Shown: piece after piece, positions 4,492 to 16,308 of the stretch
Layout: every line of letters begins with the position of its first letter
How positions within the stretch are numbered: position 1 is the stretch's first letter
Assembly: GCA_017628735.1 (NCBI GenBank)
Contig: JAGBYO010000136.1
Span: 1 to 60,209 of the forward strand
DNA from: Alistipes sp.
GTDB lineage: Bacteria; Bacteroidota; Bacteroidia; Bacteroidales; Rikenellaceae
Direction: 5' to 3'
DNA: 60,209 nucleotides
Program-made: the position numbers and the translations under genes
Notes under the pieces: model-generated
Databases searched by the model: none
Told to the model about the DNA's origin: nothing
Seen by the model: only the letters and a program-made list of their open reading frames with translations

Positions 4492-4650
4492 AGTTTTTAG
4501 TTATTAGTTGTTAGATGGGCGCTAAAGATAAGCGCAGTCGATAGAGAAGTTAGGGAATTTAAAGAAGTTAGGGAGAGCGCTATCATCATTTATCCCTAAG
4601 CTCCCAACACTCATTAAATTCCCTAATAAACCTCCTCCCAATCAGCACTC
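4491..4650. repeat. Heptamer (TAGTTNT) and nonamer (AAGTTAGGG-like) repeat module
   Basis: TAGTTTT-TAGTTAT-TAGTTGT-TAG, then imperfect 9-mers with inverted counterparts; homologous to 34893-35040. Confidence 0.7.
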
Positions 4651-4654
4651 AGCC

Positions 4655-4783
4655 AATTTCTTGTCAAAAGGGGCATAATTTGGCGCCGATAAAGAAATTG
4701 CCCTGGATGGGACATACTTGGCGTATTTCCCATTCAGGGCAATGATTGAGGCGAAAGAAGGATGCCCCTTTTCACAAGAAATT
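4655..4783 (-). repeat. Palindromic element family B, copy 1 (~129 bp)
   Basis: Termini AATTTCTTGT / ACAAGAAATT, nested stems, apical TAC-loop-GTA; overlaps TAA stop at 4782-4784. Confidence 0.85.
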
Positions 4784-5443: not shown

Positions 5444-6469
5444 CTATTTATTGCCTCTTACATACTTCTCCCACTCCCACGCAGCACGCAGAGTGTCGTT
5501 GAGCTCACGCTCGGCACGCCAGCCAAGCTCCTCGTTGGCAAGCGTTGTGTCTGCCCACACGGCGGTTACATCACCTGCACGGCGTGCGGCAACCTTGTAG
5601 TTGAGCTTTAGCTCGTTGGCAGCCTCGAAGCCCTTGACAAGCTCGAATACCGATACAGGGCGACCAGTACCTACATTGAATACCTCGTAGCGCTCCTTGT
5701 TGCGACCCTCGACCATACGCTCGATAGCCACCACATGGGCACGGGCAAGGTCGACGATGTCGATATAGTCGCGTAGGCACGAGCCATCGGGCGTGGGATA
5801 GTCGTCACCGAAGATTGAGAGGCACTCGCGGATGCCGGCAGCAGTCTGTGTGATGTAGGGCACAAGGTTGTTGGGCACACCACGGGGTAGCTCGCCGATA
5901 AGTGCCGAGGGGTGCGCACCGATGGGGTTGAAATAGCGCAAGGCGATACCGTTGAGTCCCTCGGTAGCAAAGACCATATCGCGGAGGATATCCTCGGACA
6001 TCTGCTTCGTAGCACCATAGGGCGAGGTTGCTGGCTTGCGTGGTGTAAGCTCAGTTACGGGCAACACCTCGGCATCGCCATAGACGGTAGCCGACGATGA
6101 GAATACGACATTGTGGCGGCCGTACTCCTTCATAAGCTCGAGGATTGTTACGAACGAGAGGAGATTGTTGCGGTAGTACTTCATAGGCTCGGCAACCGAC
6201 TCACCAACAGCCTTGAAGGCGGCAAAGTGGATAACCGAGTCGAAGTCGTAGCGCTCAAAGACACGACGCATAGCCTCCTTGTCGCAGCAGTCTGCCTCAA
6301 CAAAGATGGGCTCGATGCCTGTAATCTTGCGAATACCATCGAGCGACGAGGGATCGCTATTTGAGAAGTTGTCGACGATAACAACCTCAAAACCAGCCTT
6401 AGTAAGTTCTACCACGGTGTGCGAACCAATGTAGCCGGCACCACCCGCAACCAATACTCTCTTGTTCAT
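5444..6469 (-). CDS. galE: UDP-glucose 4-epimerase
   Basis: GGAGYIGSH, HFAAFKAVGES, FSSSATVYG, YGATK, LRYFNPIGAH. Confidence 0.96.
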   Translation of the reverse strand: MNKRVLVAGGAGYIGSHTVVELTKAGFEVVIVDNFSNSDPSSLDGIRKITGIEPIFVEADCCDKEAMRRVFERYDFDSVIHFAAFKAVGESVAEPMKYYRNNLLSFVTILELMKEYGRHNVVFSSSATVYGDAEVLPVTELTPRKPATSPYGATKQMSEDILRDMVFATEGLNGIALRYFNPIGAHPSALIGELPRGVPNNLVPYITQTAAGIRECLSIFGDDYPTPDGSCLRDYIDIVDLARAHVVAIERMVEGRNKERYEVFNVGTGRPVSVFELVKGFEAANELKLNYKVAARRAGDVTAVWADTTLANEELGWRAERELNDTLRAAWEWEKYVRGNK

Positions 6470-6554: not shown

Positions 6555-6980
6555 TCACTCCACAGCCACTGCACCACGGTCGCGTGCAAAGAGGTTCCAG
6601 CCACGGTGAATATCATCAATCGAGGGGTTCTCGCCATTCTCGATTTCGGCCATTGCCGCCACGATAGGCACCATATCGCGGGGGCTTCGGCTATCCACAC
6701 GCTCGTCGGCACCGATACCCGACCGACGACAGACAAAGCGCACATAGCCATCTGTAAAGTTCTCAGTAGGCGGAGCATAGCGTGATATCATCTTACGAAT
6801 TGTAGTCAGCCCATAGCGACGAGCATAGGTGTCGAGCAGGACAAATATCGCACGGTAGCCATACTCCACCGCCGAGAATTGCTTGAAGGCACTATCCTTA
6901 GATGGTACCACCTCGCCTTTGAAGCGCGTTGCCGAAAGGCGAATATTGCCCGGGTTGTTATTACGCATGCCTCTACTCAC
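6555..6980 (-). CDS. Phage-type lysozyme-like protein (putative endolysin)
   Basis: RGMRNNNPGNIR, GYRA, TIRKMISRYAPPTEN motifs; follows the holin; GTG 6980 overlapping the holin stop preferred over 7001. Confidence 0.72.
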   Translation of the reverse strand: MSRGMRNNNPGNIRLSATRFKGEVVPSKDSAFKQFSAVEYGYRAIFVLLDTYARRYGLTTIRKMISRYAPPTENFTDGYVRFVCRRSGIGADERVDSRSPRDMVPIVAAMAEIENGENPSIDDIHRGWNLFARDRGAVAVE

Positions 6981-7398
6981 CCTGCACCTCCTCGTCGACA
7001 CGACGCTTTACGATACGACCGAGCCACGCCAAAAGTGGCGAATTACTAATCGTGGCGCCATTCTCCAAGAACGACCACAGCTCCACCCCACAGACAAAAC
7101 CTGTAAAGAGACGGGCGAGGTTAAGGTGCATAAATTCCAAAACGCAACTATCAAGCACCCACGACATTACGATACCTACAACGACAAACACGGTCTTCAG
7201 TATCGTGCGCCATGCACGACGGCTCTCGAACCACCACTCACGCCCCGAGCGCCGTGCCTCGACACACGAGGCGGCAACACCCGTTAGGAAGTCCACAAAA
7301 ATAAAGGCTACGGCCGAGAGGATAAGTGGTGTGATAGGACAAAGAAGTGCGGCAAAGGCAGCCACGAGGCCACTAATGAGTCTGTACAATATCTCCAT
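6973..7398 (-). CDS. Phage holin (Phage_holin_4_1/TcdE-like)
   Basis: Hydrophobic segments, DFLTGV...SRRAWRTILK...ELWSFLEN signature. Confidence 0.8.
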   Translation of the reverse strand: MEILYRLISGLVAAFAALLCPITPLILSAVAFIFVDFLTGVAASCVEARRSGREWWFESRRAWRTILKTVFVVVGIVMSWVLDSCVLEFMHLNLARLFTGFVCGVELWSFLENGATISNSPLLAWLGRIVKRRVDEEVQGE

Positions 7399-7849
7399 TG
7401 ATTGAGCAACGATTTAAGGGGTTTTCATCGGGGTTGTACTCCGCAAAATCGGCGAAGTGCGCATTGAGGTAGTCGCCAAGACGGCGTGAGAGGGTCTGTG
7501 CTGTGTGGCGTAGGTTGCGTTGCAGGGCAGACATACGGACATTATCTGCCGTTGTGGCGTTGTAGAAGTCGTTACCCTCGCTCACCAAACACGATGAGCA
7601 ACGGTGGCCGAGCAGGGGTTGAATGGCGTAGCGCACCCAGGCAGCGATGGCGGGGGCAACATACTCCTCCATAAGGTCGGCATAGCGCCCATCGGCAAGG
7701 GCATCATAGAGCGCCTCACCAACCACAGGGCGAATATGGCGCTCCTCGACAGCCACGATATCCGAGGGCATAACGACACTTGGCGAGAGTAGCTCATCCA
7801 CGGAAAAAGCGAGGCGAAATACCCTTTCGGGAGAAATCAATGTCTTCAT
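7373..7849 (-). CDS. Putative head-tail adaptor / head completion protein
   Basis: IRPVVGEALYDAL...Y.DLMEEYVAPA pattern resembling Bacteroidetes phage head-completion proteins; directly after portal. Confidence 0.55.
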   Translation of the reverse strand: MKTLISPERVFRLAFSVDELLSPSVVMPSDIVAVEERHIRPVVGEALYDALADGRYADLMEEYVAPAIAAWVRYAIQPLLGHRCSSCLVSEGNDFYNATTADNVRMSALQRNLRHTAQTLSRRLGDYLNAHFADFAEYNPDENPLNRCSINGDIVQTH

Positions 7850-7855
7850 AACGAT

Positions 7856-9076
7856 TTAAGTATTAGATGTTTTACCAAGCGAAGCAAGGAACTGCTGCTG
7901 CTCGGGGTCGCTCTCGTCATAGTCTAAGCCATCGGCCTTGCGAGCCTCCCAGATACGCATATATTGTGGCTTAGAGCGCGTGGGTGGGCGGTTGACAATC
8001 TCCAACGACGAGGCATCAACACCAAAAACCAACTCTATAACCTTGCGAATGGGGGATAATAACTGCTCCTGCTCGGGGAGAATTACAGTGTTGAGTGCCA
8101 CCTCATACTCGTGCAAGATGCGCTCCGACGAAAACCCCGACGAGTAGTCAAGACCACTTAGCGAACGAAACCACGAGTGGGCGATGATAAGGTCGTTCTC
8201 GGCCTGAGTGTGGAGCGTGTGCCAATCGCCGTCGGTAGCGGTGTTGATGGGGATAAAGCGCGAATTATCGCCCTCGGCTTTGTCGCGTAGAACAAAGAGT
8301 ACTTGGCCTGGGTTACCAGCAAACTTCTCCTCGGCCATACGCACTATACGGTCGGCCTCGGCCTCGCTATCCACCACACTATCGAGCATCATCACGCCCG
8401 ATAGCTGAAAGGCGTTATCAAGACGCGAAATATTCCACTTATCAGTCTTATAGGCAATAGCTGCCGCATCTATTCCGGCGAGGTAGCTCGCCACACCATA
8501 GTGCGAGAACATAGGTTCATAATCTTTGTAGTGCACCATCGAGCGTAGCGTGCCATCTGCTTGCTCCTCGAAACGGGGGTAAAGTGGCAACGACTTAGCT
8601 TCAGCAGCATTGAACGAGCGCCAGTCGTGGTGCAGAACCACATGCTCCGAGTCGCGCGCCACACGACACTCCGAGGCATCACGATGATAGAGTGCAACAA
8701 AGCTATGCTCCGAGTCGGTCACCACCTCCATAAAGGCGTTGCCAAACAACATCTCGTCGAAGGCCAAGCGGTGAATAACATCGCGTAGGGTGTCGCCAGC
8801 ACCATTGGCCGAGGCGATAAGGTGGCTAACGAGTGGTTGCTCATCACCACAAACAAGGCCCTTACCAGCGATATAGTCAGCCTTGTCGTTGAGTATTCGG
8901 CGGTGAGCCACCGAGCGACGCGAGATGAGCGAGAGAGCATAAGGCAACATATTGTCGTCACCCCAATTCCACACTCTCTCAGATGTTGCAGATGCTCCCG
9001 TCACGGCCGAGCCCAAGAGGGGCTCGACACGGTTTTCGGGGGCTGCTATGCGTGTAGCAATGCGTTTTTCTGACAT
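7856..9076 (-). CDS. Phage portal protein
   Basis: WGDDNMLP...SVAHRRILNDKADYIAGKG, D..LFGNAFMEV, DNAFQLSG; ~400 aa next to capsid. Confidence 0.8.
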   Translation of the reverse strand: MSEKRIATRIAAPENRVEPLLGSAVTGASATSERVWNWGDDNMLPYALSLISRRSVAHRRILNDKADYIAGKGLVCGDEQPLVSHLIASANGAGDTLRDVIHRLAFDEMLFGNAFMEVVTDSEHSFVALYHRDASECRVARDSEHVVLHHDWRSFNAAEAKSLPLYPRFEEQADGTLRSMVHYKDYEPMFSHYGVASYLAGIDAAAIAYKTDKWNISRLDNAFQLSGVMMLDSVVDSEAEADRIVRMAEEKFAGNPGQVLFVLRDKAEGDNSRFIPINTATDGDWHTLHTQAENDLIIAHSWFRSLSGLDYSSGFSSERILHEYEVALNTVILPEQEQLLSPIRKVIELVFGVDASSLEIVNRPPTRSKPQYMRIWEARKADGLDYDESDPEQQQFLASLGKTSNT

Positions 9077-9102
9077 AGCAATAGAGGTGTTATAGTTAGA
9101 CT

Positions 9103-10065
9103 TTAGGCGAAGTCGGCACGCACCACGATGCCCTCATCAAGAATCTCGCAACCCATAAGGAACGAGGCACGCTGACGGTTCTCCATCTCATCGGGGTTGT
9201 ACCACATACGAATCTCGGCACTAGGGTCGTCGGCAGTATTTACCGCAAGCACAAGGTTGCGGCTGTCGGTGAGGAAGCAGAGCGTAGAGCACTCCACAGA
9301 CTCACGAGGCAAGAACTGCGAAATACCCATATCGACGATGCGGATGCCGTGGTAGTGGAGCTCACGACGACCTGTGGTCATATCGGTATACGCTGCATCT
9401 GCGCCAAACTTATCGAGATACTGCTCATAGAAGTCCACAATGTCGGATGTACAGAAGAATGTGAGGTGGCCCTCGCTCTTAAGAGCCTTGAGCTCGGGGG
9501 ATGCGGCACTCCACAACTTCTCAAAGAGTTCTACCACGCAGTCGGCAGTCAAAGGCTTGTCGATAAAGTCAATAGAGTTCATCGTAGAGTAGTTGTAGAT
9601 GCGTACAAGCAGACCATCAATAAGGTTCAAATCGTCGGCATTGGTGTCGCCCACCCACATCATAGTGCGGATGCTCTCGGCAATCGATGCACGGAAAAGC
9701 TCTGTTTCGGCCTGCTCAAGCTCAGTACCCGTAAGGTCATCGAGGCTGACATCTGCACGGCCTACGATATGCTCATAAATCTGGTTGAAGTAGTCTTCTG
9801 CCGAGAAGCCCACCTCGGCCTTCATCTTGACCATCTCGATTTGCTTCTGCTCGCGTACAGCGCTATTGCCACCTGTCCAGCCCGAGCTATAGGCCTGCAA
9901 GACATTTTTGCGAGGACTCCAGAGCTGCACCGTAGTAGGCATAGGCATATTGTACAGCACACGAATACCGAGCTCAGCGGCACTCTCACCCTTAAACATT
10001 GGACGGAAAAAGATGGTCTCGATATCACGATTTGTGTATCGCTTGGGGCTTTCAATCATTCCCAT
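9103..10065 (-). CDS. Major capsid protein (HK97-like, inferred)
   Basis: 320 aa immediately downstream of prohead protease; MWVGDT...DGLL motif; A-rich initiation region. Confidence 0.7.
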   Translation of the reverse strand: MGMIESPKRYTNRDIETIFFRPMFKGESAAELGIRVLYNMPMPTTVQLWSPRKNVLQAYSSGWTGGNSAVREQKQIEMVKMKAEVGFSAEDYFNQIYEHIVGRADVSLDDLTGTELEQAETELFRASIAESIRTMMWVGDTNADDLNLIDGLLVRIYNYSTMNSIDFIDKPLTADCVVELFEKLWSAASPELKALKSEGHLTFFCTSDIVDFYEQYLDKFGADAAYTDMTTGRRELHYHGIRIVDMGISQFLPRESVECSTLCFLTDSRNLVLAVNTADDPSAEIRMWYNPDEMENRQRASFLMGCEILDEGIVVRADFA

Positions 10066-10120
10066 AGTAGTAAAAATTTTAAGTTGTTAAAAAATAGGTT
10101 AAGATTTTTTGTATTGTGTT

Positions 10121-11275
10121 TTAGCGTCGACGCATCGAACGAGCATCACGCTCATAGGCAAGCATACGCTCATCGTGTGGTGCATCAATAGGCGATGGGT
10201 CATCCTTGGCCTTTACAGCCGTAGGCTTTGCACTCTTCTGCCCATCGTCGAGGGCAATAAGCGAACCTTCGCCAGATGCCACGGGTAGTGAGTCATAGTG
10301 TGGAATATAGTTGATGTCGTCGTCGACATCGGGTGTCGAGTCGATACCTATGGCTTTGAGCAGAGCTTTTACGCCTCGCATAGCCTTTACGCCAAAGCTA
10401 TCCTCCTCTGTCGTCGACTCCGTAGCTGTGGGGATAAGTCTATCGACAAGCTTTTCGGCGATAGCCTCATCGGGCGCAAGCCAGCGGCCACGGCCACCAT
10501 TTGCCGACATCAGCACCTCAATCTCTTCTACCGCTCGGCCTGAGCGCTCGGCATAGATGGCGGCCAAGCGACGGTCGGTCTGGCGAAGCATATCGACCTC
10601 GGCCTGAAGCTCCTCGGCATTGCCTTCGGTCGAGCATAGCGAGTTGTGGATAAGATAGAGTGACGAGGGTGCCATCTCGCGACAACCCTCCGAGGCGGCT
10701 TGTGCTACGATGGTAGCTGCCGAGGCTGTATAGCCGTAGCAGCGTGTGGTGATGTGGGCACCTGTGGCGCGCAGAGCCTCATAGATAAGCAGGGCATCGT
10801 TGACATCGCCACCAGTAGAGCGGATATTGACCACTATACTTGCATTGCTGAGGTCGGCAATCTTGGCCACACTCTCACGGAAGCGTTCGTAGGTCGCCAC
10901 TCGACTTTCGGGATTGTCGAACTGCCACTCCTCCGAGAGGCCTATCGTGCCCTCAATGTCGATTGTGGCACACTCGGCCTCGTTTCTGATTTTGATTACT
11001 GAGTTCATTGTAGGTTGATTTTTAAGGATTTTTTGTTGCTCATAGACCGCCTGTCGCACCTTCTCGTAGGAGCACGAGAAGGCTACGGCAGCCTCCGACA
11101 TCGCCCGACAACGACCCACACCAGGCACTGCGTGCTGAGCGACGAAGTGCGAGATAGCCATACGCTCGAGGCGAACGATGTCGACCATAGAGTGACGAGT
11201 GAGCATTGCAATGAGGCGTTCATATCGACGGTCGCGTGAGGTAATGGTGGGTGTTTGGCGAATAGAGGTAGTCAT
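10121..11275 (-). CDS. ClpP-type (S14) prohead protease/scaffold with in-frame ~89-aa N-terminal HTH-like segment; probable internal start at 11008
   Basis: INIRSTGGDV, ASAAT (Ser), LIHN (His), WLAPDEAI..KLVD; A-rich tract before ATG 11008. Confidence 0.8.
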   Translation of the reverse strand: MTTSIRQTPTITSRDRRYERLIAMLTRHSMVDIVRLERMAISHFVAQHAVPGVGRCRAMSEAAVAFSCSYEKVRQAVYEQQKILKNQPTMNSVIKIRNEAECATIDIEGTIGLSEEWQFDNPESRVATYERFRESVAKIADLSNASIVVNIRSTGGDVNDALLIYEALRATGAHITTRCYGYTASAATIVAQAASEGCREMAPSSLYLIHNSLCSTEGNAEELQAEVDMLRQTDRRLAAIYAERSGRAVEEIEVLMSANGGRGRWLAPDEAIAEKLVDRLIPTATESTTEEDSFGVKAMRGVKALLKAIGIDSTPDVDDDINYIPHYDSLPVASGEGSLIALDDGQKSAKPTAVKAKDDPSPIDAPHDERMLAYERDARSMRRR

Positions 11276-11290
11276 AGAGTGAGTTAAAGG

Positions 11291-13615
11291 TTAATCGTTA
11301 AATGTTCGTAAGAAACGGCAGCGTGCCGTGTGGTGCTCGGTGTCGTAAGCCTCTACCGAGAGCAGACGAAAGAGTGAGGATTGGCCACCCACCACGAGGC
11401 GGAAGAGTGAGCGAATGGTAGCACCTGAGCTCGAGGGGTCAAAGAGGGCGCGATACTCGTCGGCGTCGATGTGTAGCGTAAGCTCAACAACCTCCCTCTC
11501 AGCCCACTCCTTAAGCTCTGTGTCGTAGTAGCGATGCAGACCCTCTAGACCGTCGCCATCGCTAAACGAGAGGCTCTCGCCAAGCTCGATGTTGTGAAAT
11601 GCAGCGTGGGGGTACGCCGACCTCACCACGGGCGATGCCCACCACTCGCCCTCCGGAAGCTCAACCATTCCAGTATAGAGCACCACACGCGGGGTTAGAC
11701 CCTCGTCGTAGAGGCTATCGCGATTGCCAGCCGTAAGCACCTCGGCCGAGGGTGCCGACGGGGCGAAGTCACGAATAGAGGCAGTGGGAGCAAAGAGTGA
11801 GTTTATGATGGTGTGCTCCGCATACTTCGCCGCATAGCCTGGGTTGTGGTGGCTCCAACTGCCAGGCTCCGAGCCCAACTGCTCCTTGAGTCGACTTATT
11901 ACACCATCGCCCGCCTGATACTTCAGCGTCGTTGTAGCATAGCTCTGCGTAGCCCCCTCGTCAAGCACCACCCCATCATCAACCTGCCTTGCTCGCCAAT
12001 CGACAATCGTCCCCGAGTAGAAATCGTCGTACGGCTCAATAAAGAGGCGCTTCGATGGAGCATGCGAATAGATGCGAAGGTTGAACATCTGTTGTAGCGC
12101 CTGAAGCAGCGTAGTGAGCGATATATCGTGGTGGGTGATATCCTTCCACACGACACTCTCGCCATAACCTGCCACTCCACCAAAGATTGGTGTTACATAG
12201 CAACCACTATGGAGCGTGAGAGTCTGACCCTCCGTAGCACCACCAAAGAAGATGTCGTTGAAGCGCTTGGGCGAGGTGGGCGTATAGCGCTCATACGACG
12301 AGCGAACATCTATCTCGACTGTGCGACGGCCTATGGGCTCAACATAACCATCGTAGAGTGCCCAATCGCCACTATATGGGCTCAAGGCATTAGAGCCTTT
12401 CTCGCTCTGGAAGAGCATTACCGATGAGCCTACACCTTTGGGGAAGGTAACGGTTGTTACGGCCTCCGTAATTCTGCCATAACCCTGCAAGGTATAATCC
12501 ATCTCGGGGTCGAAGTCGAAGATATAGAGATTGTACTCTATTTGCGGATATACCGTATGACGATGGTCAATGTAGGGATTATTGAGCTTGAGTTCCACTT
12601 CACAGCCTGTTCCGATGTTTACCCTATCGAAGCCCTGCAGAAACTTACTCGATGCTATGCGATAATCGGTCGTAAAGCGCAGATGATAATCAAATGCTAC
12701 GCTAATATCACGCTTGGGGCGAAATATAGGTCGACCCTCCTCGAAACTAAAGCAACCGCCATTGGTGTAGGCATCACCCACCATGACACCATCGTCGGTG
12801 AGTGCCGCTGGATTGATTGTGTCTACTATAGCTCCCACATTCGATGCCATAGCTGGCTCCCAAACATATACTCTTCCATCCTCGCCTGCTGTGGCTGTCG
12901 TCGTCTTTAGGCGATAAGCCTTAAAGCCCATTGTGGCTTGAGCCGTAGCACTCTCTACCTTGGGCCATGCGCCACTCATCATCAGTCGACTGAACTTTTC
13001 CGAGCGCATAAAGTTACTCTCAAGCTTATACCCCGCCCTCTCAACAAGGCTCTCGATGATGGGTAGAACCGCGATAAAGGGGTGATAGTTGTGGGGCATC
13101 AATGTACGCTGCTCGACAAAGAGCCCCGTCATTGCAGGCTCAGGATAACTATCGCGCCATAGGGGAAGAAAGCGCACTAGGCTATCATCGCTCCACGACT
13201 CAGCAATTCCTGAGAGTGACATTACACCGCGGTAGTCAATATCCATCTGGCTGAGTTTTGTTGTAGCAGCCATCTCTGCCCACTCCGCACCACCACTACG
13301 AATACGCACTCTATAGGTTGTACCTCGATGGTCGATGTCCACTCCCAAAAGTATTGCTAAGCCCTCAAAAAGAGTCACACCATCAACCTCTATTTGGGCA
13401 GGATGATACGATAAGTTGAAACGCTCACGGCGATAGATATTTGCCCCATCTTGAAAGAGAGCATCGGTCATATCCACCGAGGCCACACGAAGGTCGATAT
13501 CTGCCTCCTCGCGCCAAGCATCGATACTCTCTAAACGCTTTACATTGAATGTGGGAAGCTCTGGCTCACGACCCACAATCGGACATACCACACCATCGAT
13601 TATAAGGCGCTTCAT
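11291..13615 (-). CDS. Phage tail-tip/baseplate hub-like protein
   Basis: Pattern of Bacteroidetes phage tail proteins (FN...LFEG...Y; MFNLRI...LFIEPYDDFY...DW); ATGA-coupled to upstream gene at 13615. Confidence 0.55.
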   Translation of the reverse strand: MKRLIIDGVVCPIVGREPELPTFNVKRLESIDAWREEADIDLRVASVDMTDALFQDGANIYRRERFNLSYHPAQIEVDGVTLFEGLAILLGVDIDHRGTTYRVRIRSGGAEWAEMAATTKLSQMDIDYRGVMSLSGIAESWSDDSLVRFLPLWRDSYPEPAMTGLFVEQRTLMPHNYHPFIAVLPIIESLVERAGYKLESNFMRSEKFSRLMMSGAWPKVESATAQATMGFKAYRLKTTTATAGEDGRVYVWEPAMASNVGAIVDTINPAALTDDGVMVGDAYTNGGCFSFEEGRPIFRPKRDISVAFDYHLRFTTDYRIASSKFLQGFDRVNIGTGCEVELKLNNPYIDHRHTVYPQIEYNLYIFDFDPEMDYTLQGYGRITEAVTTVTFPKGVGSSVMLFQSEKGSNALSPYSGDWALYDGYVEPIGRRTVEIDVRSSYERYTPTSPKRFNDIFFGGATEGQTLTLHSGCYVTPIFGGVAGYGESVVWKDITHHDISLTTLLQALQQMFNLRIYSHAPSKRLFIEPYDDFYSGTIVDWRARQVDDGVVLDEGATQSYATTTLKYQAGDGVISRLKEQLGSEPGSWSHHNPGYAAKYAEHTIINSLFAPTASIRDFAPSAPSAEVLTAGNRDSLYDEGLTPRVVLYTGMVELPEGEWWASPVVRSAYPHAAFHNIELGESLSFSDGDGLEGLHRYYDTELKEWAEREVVELTLHIDADEYRALFDPSSSGATIRSLFRLVVGGQSSLFRLLSVEAYDTEHHTARCRFLRTFND

Positions 13616-14580
13616 AGCCCACCCCCTTTCCACTCCTCGACGATGTCGAGCGATAGGCGTTGCAATGCGCCATGGTCGTCGTAGCCAATCTCGCGGCGAG
13701 CCAAGCTATGAGGAATAATCTTGCCTTGATACTCCTCATATATGTATGGCGAGCAGATAATCTCGGCCAATCGCTCCTGTTCCGAGCTAGAGAGCGTTGC
13801 AGATGTTAGGCGCTCAATGCTCTCAGCACCATTGAGCCAAGCGCGACTGCCCTCTGTCGTTGCTATGGTCGTCACATCAGCCTTACGACTCACTGAGCGC
13901 GAGTGCGAAAAGGCATAGCTCTCAATACCTCCACGACTATTGTACCACAGAAGCGTTCGTGAGGTTGATGAACGCTCAACAATTTGATACTCATACAACT
14001 CTTTTACAAGGCCATTAGTTATTGCAACCTCTATCTTTTCGGCAGACGCCGAAAGTGAAGTGAGCGGTATCACAACTTCGACGGGCATCGAACTACCACT
14101 AAACTGCACGCTCTCCACAACGCGGATACGCCCTCTAATCGACTCATGAATCACCACACTAAGAACCTTCACAGCATTTACCGTAAAGCGTAGCGTATCT
14201 CCTAAGGCAACACCATTTTCGTGTGTCATTGTCGAAAGGATTTGGTGCTCATTAGCCAAAAAGGGGGCTCGAAAGAGCAACAAATCGGGGGATGCCACAC
14301 CCTCAACCTCGACCACTACATGACACAATGAAGGCGAGACAACAATTGTGGGCGAGCTTGCAATCGGCGGCTCAAGACTCACACTGCGACGGATAATCGA
14401 GGATATATCAACTGTCGCCTCTGTTACAGAGTAGAGCCGCATCTCGCCTAAAATAGCACCTGTGTCTACATCTCGCACAACTACCACAACATCGCTCGGT
14501 TGTTCAAGTTCGGTGGAGAATGAGTAGAGGAGCTTATCGTTCCACGATGCACCATTTTTTGGAATGTTTGTAAACTTCAT
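13612..14580 (-). CDS. Phage distal-tail-like structural protein
   Basis: Beta-rich; C-terminal WYNSRGGIESYAF...LAEIICSPYIY pattern typical of the gene preceding the hub in Bacteroidetes phage tail modules. Confidence 0.5.
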   Translation of the reverse strand: MKFTNIPKNGASWNDKLLYSFSTELEQPSDVVVVVRDVDTGAILGEMRLYSVTEATVDISSIIRRSVSLEPPIASSPTIVVSPSLCHVVVEVEGVASPDLLLFRAPFLANEHQILSTMTHENGVALGDTLRFTVNAVKVLSVVIHESIRGRIRVVESVQFSGSSMPVEVVIPLTSLSASAEKIEVAITNGLVKELYEYQIVERSSTSRTLLWYNSRGGIESYAFSHSRSVSRKADVTTIATTEGSRAWLNGAESIERLTSATLSSSEQERLAEIICSPYIYEEYQGKIIPHSLARREIGYDDHGALQRLSLDIVEEWKGGGL

Positions 14581-14856
14581 AAGTTAAATAGTTTAATTAG
14601 AAATAGACAAAAGAGCGGGAGGGTCGCCGAGCAAGCCGAGAATGGTCTTGCTTATCTACCACTGGGGGTGTGGCAACATGAGAAATATTTGTTAGGAATT
14701 TTGTTGATAAGGTGTCAAAAAACGATAATATAACTACTTTAGCACCTTATTATTAAATGATTACGAATGTCGATAACGCCACGACAACTTTTGTTGATAG
14801 TGTCGATAATATCAGATTTGCGACCCTCCATTGGGTAGGATTAAGAGGCGTTTGAC
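14581..14856 (-). promoter_or_regulatory. Long structured 5' leader of the phage-derived operon
   Basis: Perfect 10-bp IR GGAGGGTCGC (14618-14627) / GCGACCCTCC (14820-14829); inner IR ATAAGGTG/CACCTTAT; four TGTYGATA boxes. Confidence 0.5.
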
Positions 14857-14860
14857 GGTA

Positions 14861-14892
14861 CAAATATACAACATGAAAATGCGTTTGTCAAG
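14861..14892 (-). promoter_or_regulatory. Host-type promoter facing the phage-derived operon
   Basis: CTTG (14892-14889), 20-nt spacer, TATATTTG (14868-14861). Confidence 0.6.
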
Positions 14893-15026: not shown

Positions 15027-15220
15027 AAGGTAGGTTCTATAAATTAGTTCGAGTTGATTTTGAAGAGTATTTTGAGGATATTTCTCATTTATTACGGAGG
15101 GCGCAATGCGAGCATTGTAACCGAGCAAAAATGAGAAAGAGCCCAAAATAAATTCAAAAGCAACCGAAATAGAACCAACCGACAACGAAAACTTGATTAC
15201 TAATTTATAGAACATACCTT
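15027..15220. repeat. Palindromic element family A, copy 2 (prfA 5' UTR)
   Basis: IR AAGGTAGGTTCTATAAATTAGT / ACTAATTTATAGAACATACCTT; homologous to 2801-2996. Confidence 0.85.
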
Positions 15221-15222
15221 TT

Positions 15223-16308
15223 ATGGCAGATAATTCGATACTAATTCGCCTTGATGGTCTTAAGCTCAAGTACGAGGAGATTGGTCAGAAGTTGACCGAC
15301 CCCGAGGTGATTGCCGATGTCAAGCAGTTTGTGCAGCTCACCAAAGAGTACAAGGAGTTGGAGCCTATCGTAGAGACCTCTGACCGCTTCCGCACCGCCC
15401 TTGCCAATCTCGCCGAGGCAAAGGATGTCCTTGCCAACGAGAAGGACGAGGAGTTCCGCGAGATTGCACGCGAGGAGGTGGCAACGCTTGAGCCCGCTAT
15501 CGAGAAGATGGAGGAGGAGATTAAGCTCTTGCTTATACCCAAAGACCCCCAGGACGACAAGAACGCTATCGTCGAGATTCGTGGTGGTACGGGTGGCGAC
15601 GAGGCAGCAATCTTCGCAGGCGACTTGTTGCGTATGTATACCAAGTATATCGAGTCGAAGGGCTGGCGCTACGAGATTACCTCATCGTCGGAGGGTGCTG
15701 CAGGTGGCTACAAGGAGGTTGTCCTCAAGGTTACGGGCAACGCCGTTTATGGCACCTTGAAGTATGAGTCGGGCGTGCACCGTGTTCAGCGTGTGCCCCA
15801 GACCGAGACACAGGGTCGTGTCCACACCTCAGCAGCGTCGGTGGCTGTATTGCCCGAGGCTGAGGAGTTCGATATCGAGATTTCGATGAACGACATCCGC
15901 AAGGATATCTTCTGTGCATCGGGTCCTGGTGGCCAGTCGGTGAACACCACCTACTCGGCTATCCGCCTTACGCACATCCCCACAGGTATCGTCGTGCAGT
16001 GTCAGGACCAGAAGTCACAGCTCAAGAACTTCGACAAGGCGTTCGAGGAGTTGCGTACCCGTGTCTTCAACCTCGAGTACTCGAAGTACCTCGACGAGAT
16101 TGCATCGAAGCGTAAGACGATGGTATCGACGGGTGACCGCTCGGCGAAGATTCGTACCTACAACTATCCTCAGGGCCGTATCACCGACCACCGCATCAAC
16201 TACACCATCTACAACCTCTCAGCATTTATGGACGGCGACATTCAGGATGTCATCGACCAGCTCATCGTAGCCGAGAATGCCGAGCGTTTGAAGGAGTCAG
16301 AGTTGTAG
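15223..16308 (+). CDS. prfA: Peptide chain release factor 1
   Basis: ESGVHRVQRVPQTE (PxT), GPGGQ, RTYNYPQGR. Confidence 0.97.
   Translation: MADNSILIRLDGLKLKYEEIGQKLTDPEVIADVKQFVQLTKEYKELEPIVETSDRFRTALANLAEAKDVLANEKDEEFREIAREEVATLEPAIEKMEEEIKLLLIPKDPQDDKNAIVEIRGGTGGDEAAIFAGDLLRMYTKYIESKGWRYEITSSSEGAAGGYKEVVLKVTGNAVYGTLKYESGVHRVQRVPQTETQGRVHTSAASVAVLPEAEEFDIEISMNDIRKDIFCASGPGGQSVNTTYSAIRLTHIPTGIVVQCQDQKSQLKNFDKAFEELRTRVFNLEYSKYLDEIASKRKTMVSTGDRSAKIRTYNYPQGRITDHRINYTIYNLSAFMDGDIQDVIDQLIVAENAERLKESEL

Follow-up and report, generated by a model that had tools for sequence, protein, structure and literature searches.

The gene transfer agents (GTAs) RcGTA and CcGTA derive from phages, are inherited vertically, and lie at several loci; RcGTA keeps a full tail. 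PBSX of Bacillus subtilis, which has a repressor, kills by means of a full contractile tail and is encoded at one contiguous locus, and BaGTA of Bartonella combines split phage-derived modules with run-off replication. In the gut, FpGTA of Faecalibacterium prausnitzii has been called the first GTA-like element (PMC12946183). Here, we analyzed a contig of Alistipes sp. from the family Rikenellaceae (assembly GCA_017628735.1, contig JAGBYO010000136.1, positions 1 to 60,209 of the forward strand; this whole stretch of 60,209 nucleotides [nt] is referred to as the window), in which the galE and prfA genes enclose an operon of phage-type genes. A first-pass annotation of the window had described eight intact genes, running from a tail-tip-like protein to a lysin, as a candidate GTA, and we confirmed eight co-oriented open reading frames (ORFs), all free of stop codons and on the negative strand. 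Together with a terminase locus elsewhere in the genome, this operon probably encodes a GTA-like particle, with a short tail or none, that was domesticated independently.

Results

Head, tail-tip, and lysis genes of the operon

The operon-encoded proteins were identified by profile matches, predicted folds, and gene order (Table 1). The capsid protein matched PHROG 11320 (unknown function) with an E value of 5e-10 and PHROG 1623 (virion structural) with an E value of 0.0055, both of them weak matches. Its distant relatives reach PHROG 1623 at 5e-19 and also PHROG 212, "major head protein," and in the phages whose gene order was compared, the capsid gene follows that of the protease. The 774-amino-acid (aa) protein yielded a pLDDT of only 34 when folded without an alignment; repeated with an alignment of 148 rows, the AlphaFold model reached a pLDDT of 91 and a pTM of 0.86. 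Foldseek matched this model to T5 pb3, DT57C, and the lambda tail tip in the PDB (E value of about 1e-5) and to a BFVD entry (1e-40), and by its predicted fold the protein is a siphophage baseplate hub. Its gene starts with the ATG at position 13615, overlapping the stop codon of the gene upstream. The 322-aa protein is called distal-tail-like because its structural look-alikes in the atlas include a "phage tail protein" cluster (TM of 0.78) and its homolog stands before the hub in phages.

Searches of PDB sequence profiles with the capsid, hub, distal-tail, tube, and 89-aa proteins returned nothing useful, and the 89-aa helix-turn-helix (HTH)-like protein had no significant family match in the libraries. 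The gene that had been described as encoding an HTH/ClpP protease is indeed a fusion in this genome; in most relatives, and in phages, the HTH-like domain is a separate ORF of about 89 aa. The catalytic Ser and His residues of the protease were present in all 39 full-length copies. An extension of the capsid by a beta-rich C-terminal segment of about 85 aa was observed in loci L032, L054, L056, L060, L064, L066, and L070.

Evidence for vertical inheritance and purifying selection

The distribution of the system was determined in 301 Rikenellaceae genomes, 214 of them of high quality. The capsid was present in 264 of the 301 (201 of the 214), with a single match in 260 of the 264 genomes and no stop codons among the 150 matches listed, and the operon is kept as a single copy across 24 genera. 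The patchy, strain-specific presence that had been named as an argument against domestication was thus not observed. The terminase TerL was present in 271 of the 301 genomes. Seven genera yielded no capsid match; six of these had no TerL match either, and the seventh had TerL in 1 of 7. Outside the family, capsid matches were restricted to 6 of 396 order-level genomes and were weak. Scanning 185,579 species genomes with a pattern retrieved 464 relatives, and among the 80 of these that were listed, all titles read Alistipes or Rikenellaceae except two generic Bacteroidales/Bacteroidetes entries.

Gene order was constant in 40 loci while the neighbors changed, prfA lying elsewhere in relatives outside this subclade. 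None of the 62 close loci had a shortened protease, capsid, or portal; the hub was short in six, four of them at contig ends and two possibly frameshifted, so that broken genes were rare. In trees of 26 genomes, the concatenate of capsid, portal, and hub followed rpoB plus prfA, sharing 12 of 23 splits (random mean of 0.13 shared splits, maximum of 2 in 1000) with 1 of 14 strong splits in conflict and a patristic r of 0.85. The TerL tree likewise shared 12 of 23 splits with rpoB plus prfA, and 2 of its 10 strong splits conflicted; as a yardstick, the prfA and rpoB trees shared 11 of 23 with each other. The ratio of nonsynonymous to synonymous substitution rates (dN/dS), pooled over 8 to 11 disjoint pairs (highest single value of 0.46), ranged from 0.11 for portal and holin, the most constrained genes, to 0.28 for the distal-tail gene, far below 1; the value for prfA was 0.017. 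The operon therefore appears to be vertically inherited under purifying selection, as GTAs are.

Divergence was uneven along the locus. Compared with the two nearest species, the syntenic flanks were mostly 92 to 98% identical in DNA and TerL was 93 to 98% identical in protein, whereas the distal-tail, hub, and capsid genes were only 55 to 75% identical in DNA, and their synonymous divergence was raised too. This raised divergence of exposed parts suggests allele exchange or balancing selection.

Terminase, repressor, and spanin-like genes at separate loci

A search of the same genome for terminases revealed an orphan TerL gene on contig C27, preceded by a gene for a 94-aa protein and accompanied by a divergent cI-like repressor gene with HTH and S24-peptidase domains; a host phosphatase gene lies on one side. 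The reported lack of a terminase and a repressor thus holds at the operon and fails for the genome as a whole, and the anticipated split over several loci was found, with TerL and the repressor on C27 and a spanin-like gene on C146. Among 21 such loci, the repressor, the 94-aa gene, and TerL were found in 20, 19, and 21, respectively. TerL, which shares about 48% identity with the B40-8-like terminases of Bacteroides phages, retains the Walker A, Walker B, and nuclease aspartate residues in 31 of 31 sequences. Its locus lies more than 0.5 Mb from the operon in most closed genomes and about 20 kb from it in G102. A PF04466 search for a second terminase found none, and neither replication genes nor an integrase was present at the operon or the TerL locus. 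The 94-aa gene was considered as the small terminase (TerS) and rejected, phages having a separate TerS gene before TerL and the 94-aa homolog near the repressor. The non-canonical LexA proteins of Bacteroidetes control an SOS regulon via GGA-N5-TCC or CTAA-N5-TTAG boxes; both groups are described as absent from Bacteroidales (PMC8565304).

An orphan gene between host genes (G000:C146:10990-11577) is 46% identical to the gene that follows the lysin in phages, and from its position and resemblance we take its product to be spanin-like. The gene occurs inside the operon loci of four other genera and far from the operon in closed Alistipes genomes; matches were obtained in 13 of 16 Alistipes genomes and, among the other genomes, in 2 of 7 that bear the operon and 0 of 3 that lack the system. 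By this distribution it is a probable third locus of the system.

Related phages and stepwise loss of tail genes

Uncultured temperate siphophages of the gut, 37 to 44 kb in length (IMG/VR; loci L107 to L123 and L127), share the late-gene order of the operon, which in the phages reads distal-tail, hub, tape measure, small HTH gene, protease, capsid, tube, portal, adaptor, fibers, and lysis; the same order was found in environmental phages. The placement of the portal after the capsid, pointed out in the first-pass annotation as the reverse of the usual order, does not indicate co-option, since free phages belonging to this family share it; it is therefore ancestral. The gut phages are as close as other genera are, with 46 to 49% identity in the capsid, 58 to 60% in the portal, and 60% in TerL. 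In the hub, identity is only 22 to 24%. The near identity to an active prophage that had been named as an argument against domestication was not seen. Cultured phages contained no close capsid, portal, or hub homolog.

The gut phages keep TerS, a tape measure of 1070 to 1490 aa, and the tube and fiber genes. TerS stood directly before TerL in the three phage loci read, and the 94-aa gene lay 1 to 2 kb from the repressor in 3 of 5 gut phages. Because the phages carry the 94-aa gene near the repressor, the terminase locus reads as the left arm of the parent phage, in which deletion of the replication region would have joined the repressor and an early gene to the terminase. A single origin was not rejected by a concatenated tree test (p-AU of 0.50) and would fit the data. 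When distant environmental phages are used as the root, single-gene trees nest the gut phages within the chromosomal copies.

The chromosomal loci have lost the tail genes to different extents. Among the 40 loci, a chaperone-like gene was kept in 7, a tape-measure remnant (a short gene with only the C-terminal motif) in 11, a terminator-like gene in 26, a tube-like gene in 25, and none of these in 12. The tube, terminator, and chaperone matched no Pfam or PHROG family and were named by position and by what we take to be a resemblance. Tube profile matches were obtained in 169 of the 301 genomes and were missing from four capsid-bearing genera and from the closed genome G128; this distribution needs 5 changes on the host tree. 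Of 30 genomes, 8, all from outside Alistipes, had a TerS homolog located between the 94-aa gene and TerL; none was detected in the other 22, closed genomes being among those searched. As judged by alignment to one phage TerS, 7 of the 8 homologs align only from residue 46 to 88 onward and one is full-length-like; the part absent from the seven is the N-terminal HTH region. Known GTA small terminases lack the DNA-binding domain (PMC11841831).

In an Alistipes genome that also has the operon, one stretch (G183:C1:741306-741917) is 93% identical to a late gene of the gut phages, which suggests a prophage of the parent family in an operon-bearing host. Locus L095 (MT838736.1) and short IMG/VR loci, for example L098, L099, and L106, are filed as phages but either show the chromosomal layout, lacking a tape measure, or group with the chromosomal copies; such records are probably host DNA in virus catalogs.

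A conserved promoter and a helicase-primase cassette

The promoter predicted upstream of the operon combines an CTTGACAA element with TATATTTG at a fixed spacing and was matched in 54 of 58 close relatives, and the motif also stands upstream of the operon in several other genera. The pattern was not found in any of the five related phages (5/5). When a matrix built from the relatives, without the window, was run over the genome, the operon site ranked first with a score of 95.7, followed by a site on contig C137 with 63.7 and the TerL locus with 4.3, the fourth-ranked site scoring -8.4. In the promoter that had been described as host-type, the predicted -7 box is the usual one of Bacteroidota, but the conserved CTTGACAA element is unusual. 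On its own, TTGACA..TAnnTTTG is unspecific, with 2 to 37 sites in each genome. Those in G116 include a repeated element, about 30 copies of an intergenic repeat (e.g., L356 and L361) containing a promoter-like TTGACA..TATCTTTG sequence. The conserved promoter and the retained S24 repressor may point to control by host regulators in a subpopulation of cells.

The leader is the genome's only 250-nt stretch with four TTATCAACA-like boxes. Its DnaA-box-like repeats were considered as oriC, a reading rejected for the closed relative G086, in which the operon lies mid-replichore (GC skew computed from 20 sampled 20-kb stretches).

The C137 promoter site (G000:C137:4510-6180, L326) is predicted to drive an AAA_25 helicase gene and a DUF6371 zinc-ribbon primase-like gene, and its sequence shares identical runs of 22 and 16 nt with the operon promoter. 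This cassette of about 2.2 kb lies between housekeeping genes at different sites, is multi-copy in some genomes, and has no recognized integrase nearby; it was found in 11 of the 301 genomes, in six of them with the operon-type promoter. Fragments are present on C140, C46, and C63, and further loci are L341 to L345 and L348 to L351. The cassette is possibly a hitch-hiking replicon; the C137 helicase as a core run-off helicase was rejected because of this low prevalence (11 of 301) and the varying insertion sites. In G187, a similar promoter precedes a second helicase, which is patchy too (53 of 231, including paralogs). In that genome, the same promoter type was also seen before a two-copy AT-rich non-coding element (L388, L398, and L411, which include the second helicase). 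Short contigs of the genome under study (G000:C139 [L327] and C149) resemble fragments of a different prophage, with capsid-like genes and genes that are presumably sheath-like.

Features of the window

The coordinates are collected in Table 1. The GC content of the operon, 50 to 57%, is like that of the window. In codon adaptation, ranked among 921 ORFs of the genome, the capsid and portal genes, described by eye as host-like in codon style, stand at the 48th and 38th percentiles and the distal-tail and hub genes at the 2nd and 13th. A scan of the window found no tRNA, and no direct repeat among its 20 largest repeat families brackets the operon, in agreement with the reported absence of tRNAs and att-like repeats. 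Nested inverted repeats occupy the intergenic stretch after a peptidase gene (4550 to 4783), and a 22-nt inverted pair lies in the prfA leader (15027 to 15220).

Table 1. Operon, flanking genes, and predicted regulatory elements, in window positions
Feature	Position	Strand	Evidence or remark
galE, host flank	5444..6469	-	library match; adjoins operon in 17/62 close loci, not conserved
Endolysin-like protein	6555..7001	-	PHROG 873, 3e-44; core motif residues kept in 24/24 copies
Holin	6973..7398	-	PF05105, 2e-12; PHROG 199
DUF6712 protein, putative head-tail adaptor	7373..7849	-	Pfam above cut-off; follows portal in phages
Portal protein	7856..9076	-	PHROG 11226, 5e-20; TIGR01540, 4e-15; dN/dS 0.11
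26-nt capsid-portal gap, tail-tube-like gene missing	9077..9102	-	gene present in phages and 25/40 relatives
Major capsid protein (putative)	9103..10065	-	position; PHROG 11320/1623 links
ClpP-type prohead protease	10121..11008	-	Pfam, 1.9e-25; PHROG 94, 5e-36
89-aa HTH-like domain, fused to protease here	11009..11275	-	candidate late regulator
774-aa baseplate hub/central tail-tip protein, T5 pb3/lambda gpJ fold	11291..13615	-	predicted fold; Foldseek
322-aa putative distal-tail-like (Dit-like) protein	13612..14580	-	fastest-evolving gene, dN/dS 0.28
AT-rich 5' leader with repeated TTATCAACA-like 9-mers	14581..14860	-	candidate regulator sites
Predicted operon promoter	14861..14892	-	CTTGACAA element, 16-17-nt spacer, TATATTTG = Bacteroidota -7 box
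prfA, host flank	15223..16308	+	library match; adjoins operon in 54/62 close loci

Discussion

Several features of GTAs were found in the system, i.e., intact phage-derived head, portal, protease, and terminase genes, no replication or integration genes, and distribution over several loci. The operon and the TerL of the second locus likely build a particle that would package host DNA without sequence preference and would be released by lysis. We consider a GTA probable because packaging and lysis are kept, self-recognition and replication have been removed, and the genes are retained vertically, as in GTAs. Of the checks that had been named as able to refute domestication, those on prevalence, dN/dS, pseudogenes, and distance from phages came out in its favor; the portal order is no sign of co-option.

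Production of the particle may proceed as follows. In some cells, DNA damage or a different stress would lead to cleavage of the S24 repressor and thereby de-repress the 94-aa gene and TerL, and an activator acting at the CTTGACAA promoter would turn the operon on. Protease, portal, and capsid would form a prohead, which TerL would fill by headful packaging from host DNA, a cargo that we propose because TerS has lost its DNA-recognition domain. The recipient range would be set by the distal-tail ring and hub, attached either to a vestigial tube or straight to the neck, which may be why they diverge fastest. Finally, holin, lysin, and the spanin-like protein would lyse the producer cell. A bolder version, which we hold only tentatively and regard as doubtful, is that this is the first GTA of Bacteroidota, a siphophage turning tail-less that has repeatedly shed its tape measure, chaperone, tube, terminator, and small terminase, with the distal-tail ring and hub on the neck and TerL packaging alone, and that the two-gene helicase-primase cassette has copied the promoter so as to amplify itself and rides along.

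Several points weigh against a GTA. Particle, packaged DNA, and transfer have none of them been observed. Long-tailed phages normally need a tape measure for DNA ejection, and none of the 40 loci has a full one, so that DNA delivery is the weakest step of the mechanism; no fiber homolog was found in the chromosomal system, and this genome (86% complete) contained no tube, terminator-like, chaperone-like, or TerS homolog. The capsid was assigned from position and weak profile links, and the protease is shortened to ORFs of 88 to 107 aa in 3 of 41 loci (L032, L054, and L056). The catalytic Ser of the repressor was present in 31 of 38 rows and the Lys in 30 of 38, some genomes being entered twice. 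The second locus can persist alone, because four Alistipes genomes that are 94 to 99% complete (G110, G151, G211, and G229; L087 and L353 to L355) have an intact TerL and repressor and no capsid or portal match. Before TerL, the promoter motif is confined to this subclade, apart from a weak occurrence in one other genus (G019). In RNA run X4, depth was flat over the operon, flanks, and intergenic DNA and was lower in the operon, so that the run does not show expression; the higher operon depth in DNA run X6 was discounted because the runs had been found with this stretch. A long-read study of virus-like particles from three donors, in whose total DNA Rikenellaceae are abundant, names no Rikenellaceae among its GTA-like events in the eight supplementary files searched by term (PMC12946183).

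Because the missing tape measure leaves delivery unexplained, roles in defense, by tail borrowing, or without gene transfer stay alive beside a GTA. Infection by a related temperate phage might induce the operon, whose divergent capsid, distal-tail, and hub subunits would poison phage assembly or send the phage DNA into dead-end heads, with holin and lysin cutting the infection short. Very close phages share the habitat, one Alistipes genome has a late-gene copy 93% identical to that of a phage, the distal-tail, hub, and capsid genes diverge far faster between sister species than the flanks and TerL do, as in an arms race, and a decoy would pay nothing for losing its tape measure, tube, and fibers; we nonetheless hold such interference to be unlikely, since a decoy needs neither an intact TerL with its own repressor, retained in 271 of 301 genomes, nor a TerS shorn of just its DNA-binding end, and since the promoter pattern was missing from the related phages. 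Capsid-forming satellites take their tails from phages, and DNA-filled heads carrying host DNA and their own tip might similarly obtain tape measure, tube, and fibers from a phage of the parent family that is resident in the same cell or infects it. The missing parts are exactly those encoded by related phages, and the tube gene has changed repeatedly on the host tree. A distal-tail ring and hub under purifying selection would be needless if whole tails were borrowed, however, and cross-assembly may fail with a hub only 22 to 24% identical to phage hubs, which makes this scenario decidedly improbable.

A DNA-filled or empty particle serving the host without gene transfer, by PBSX-like killing of related strains or by regulated lysis that releases DNA and vesicles, has slim prospects: killing by PBSX or tailocins depends on the tail, which is being lost here, and simple lysis would not preserve portal, protease, capsid, and TerL. 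In its favor, holin and portal are the most constrained genes, fast tip evolution would suit target choice, and PBSX packages host DNA that it does not inject (PMC12946183). Decay of a prophage without a current role is very improbable and already largely refuted; progressive gene loss, the short protease ORFs in three loci, four operon-less genomes, and the lack of shown expression would fit it, but a single copy in 24 genera, dN/dS of 0.11 to 0.28, invariant catalytic residues, a conserved promoter, and almost no broken genes would not. Other candidates were rejected. An active temperate prophage would have an integrase, att sites, a replication module, a complete tail, and a patchy presence; a tailocin shows the opposite pattern to the one seen here, in which head and terminase are kept and tail genes are lost; a capsid-forming phage satellite (cf-PICI), a mobile island that has an integrase, replication of its own, and a self-specific terminase, does not fit a system that is not mobile, has no integrase or replicon, and has a truncated or absent TerS; and descent from the RcGTA clade is contradicted by the different gene order and by nearest relatives that are Bacteroidota-type phages.

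A literature search, with subscription journals and bioRxiv supplements outside its scope, found no report of this system, or of such a particle type in Bacteroidota, among the titles and abstract openings returned, and the main text of 10.64898/2026.07.08.737213 does not mention Alistipes or Rikenellaceae. Alistipes and its relatives are abundant in the guts of people and ruminants. If the system is a GTA, its evolution from a phage is unusually tractable, as the parent phage family is extant and living lineages hold successive stages, with TerS whole, truncated, or gone and with the tail chaperone, the remnant of the tape measure, the tube, and the terminator retained in some and lost in others. 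Two structural questions follow, namely, how a siphophage tip might function when neither tape measure nor tube is present and how TerL might package unaided by TerS. Chromosomal copies filed as phages, such as MT838736.1 and several short IMG/VR records, affect gut virome counts.

Among described systems, RcGTA and CcGTA resemble the present one in having phage-derived head and tip genes without replication genes, at several vertically inherited loci, and a small terminase without a DNA-binding domain (PMC11841831), and the predicted hub fold matches RcGTA virion chain 6tba (E value of 3.6e-4). They differ in that the origin here appears to be independent, from a Bacteroidota siphophage family; TerL is separated from the head genes and adjoins a cI-like repressor; and there is no tape measure, often no tube, and often no TerS at all. 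BaGTA shares the split phage-derived modules, and some Alistipes have a helicase-primase cassette with the operon promoter, but the patchy presence of that cassette (11/301) at varying sites means that it is not a core run-off origin. PBSX, a domesticated prophage, also packages host DNA (PMC12946183), but from a contiguous locus with a killing tail, whereas the present system has split loci and an eroded tail. The gut siphophages of 37 to 44 kb retain the TerS, tape measure, tube, and fibers that the chromosomal system has lost. FpGTA is likewise found in a gut commensal, at two loci with lysis genes, and is near-ubiquitous in its genus, and its particles have no visible tail, as may also hold for the predicted particle of the present system. 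In contrast, FpGTA has a Gram-positive host, short-tailed-phage genes, and a terminase in the head operon, and its particles and their DNA of about 9 kb have been observed, whereas the Rikenellaceae system, with its predicted particle, has arisen from a long-tailed phage by deletion (PMC12946183 for FpGTA).

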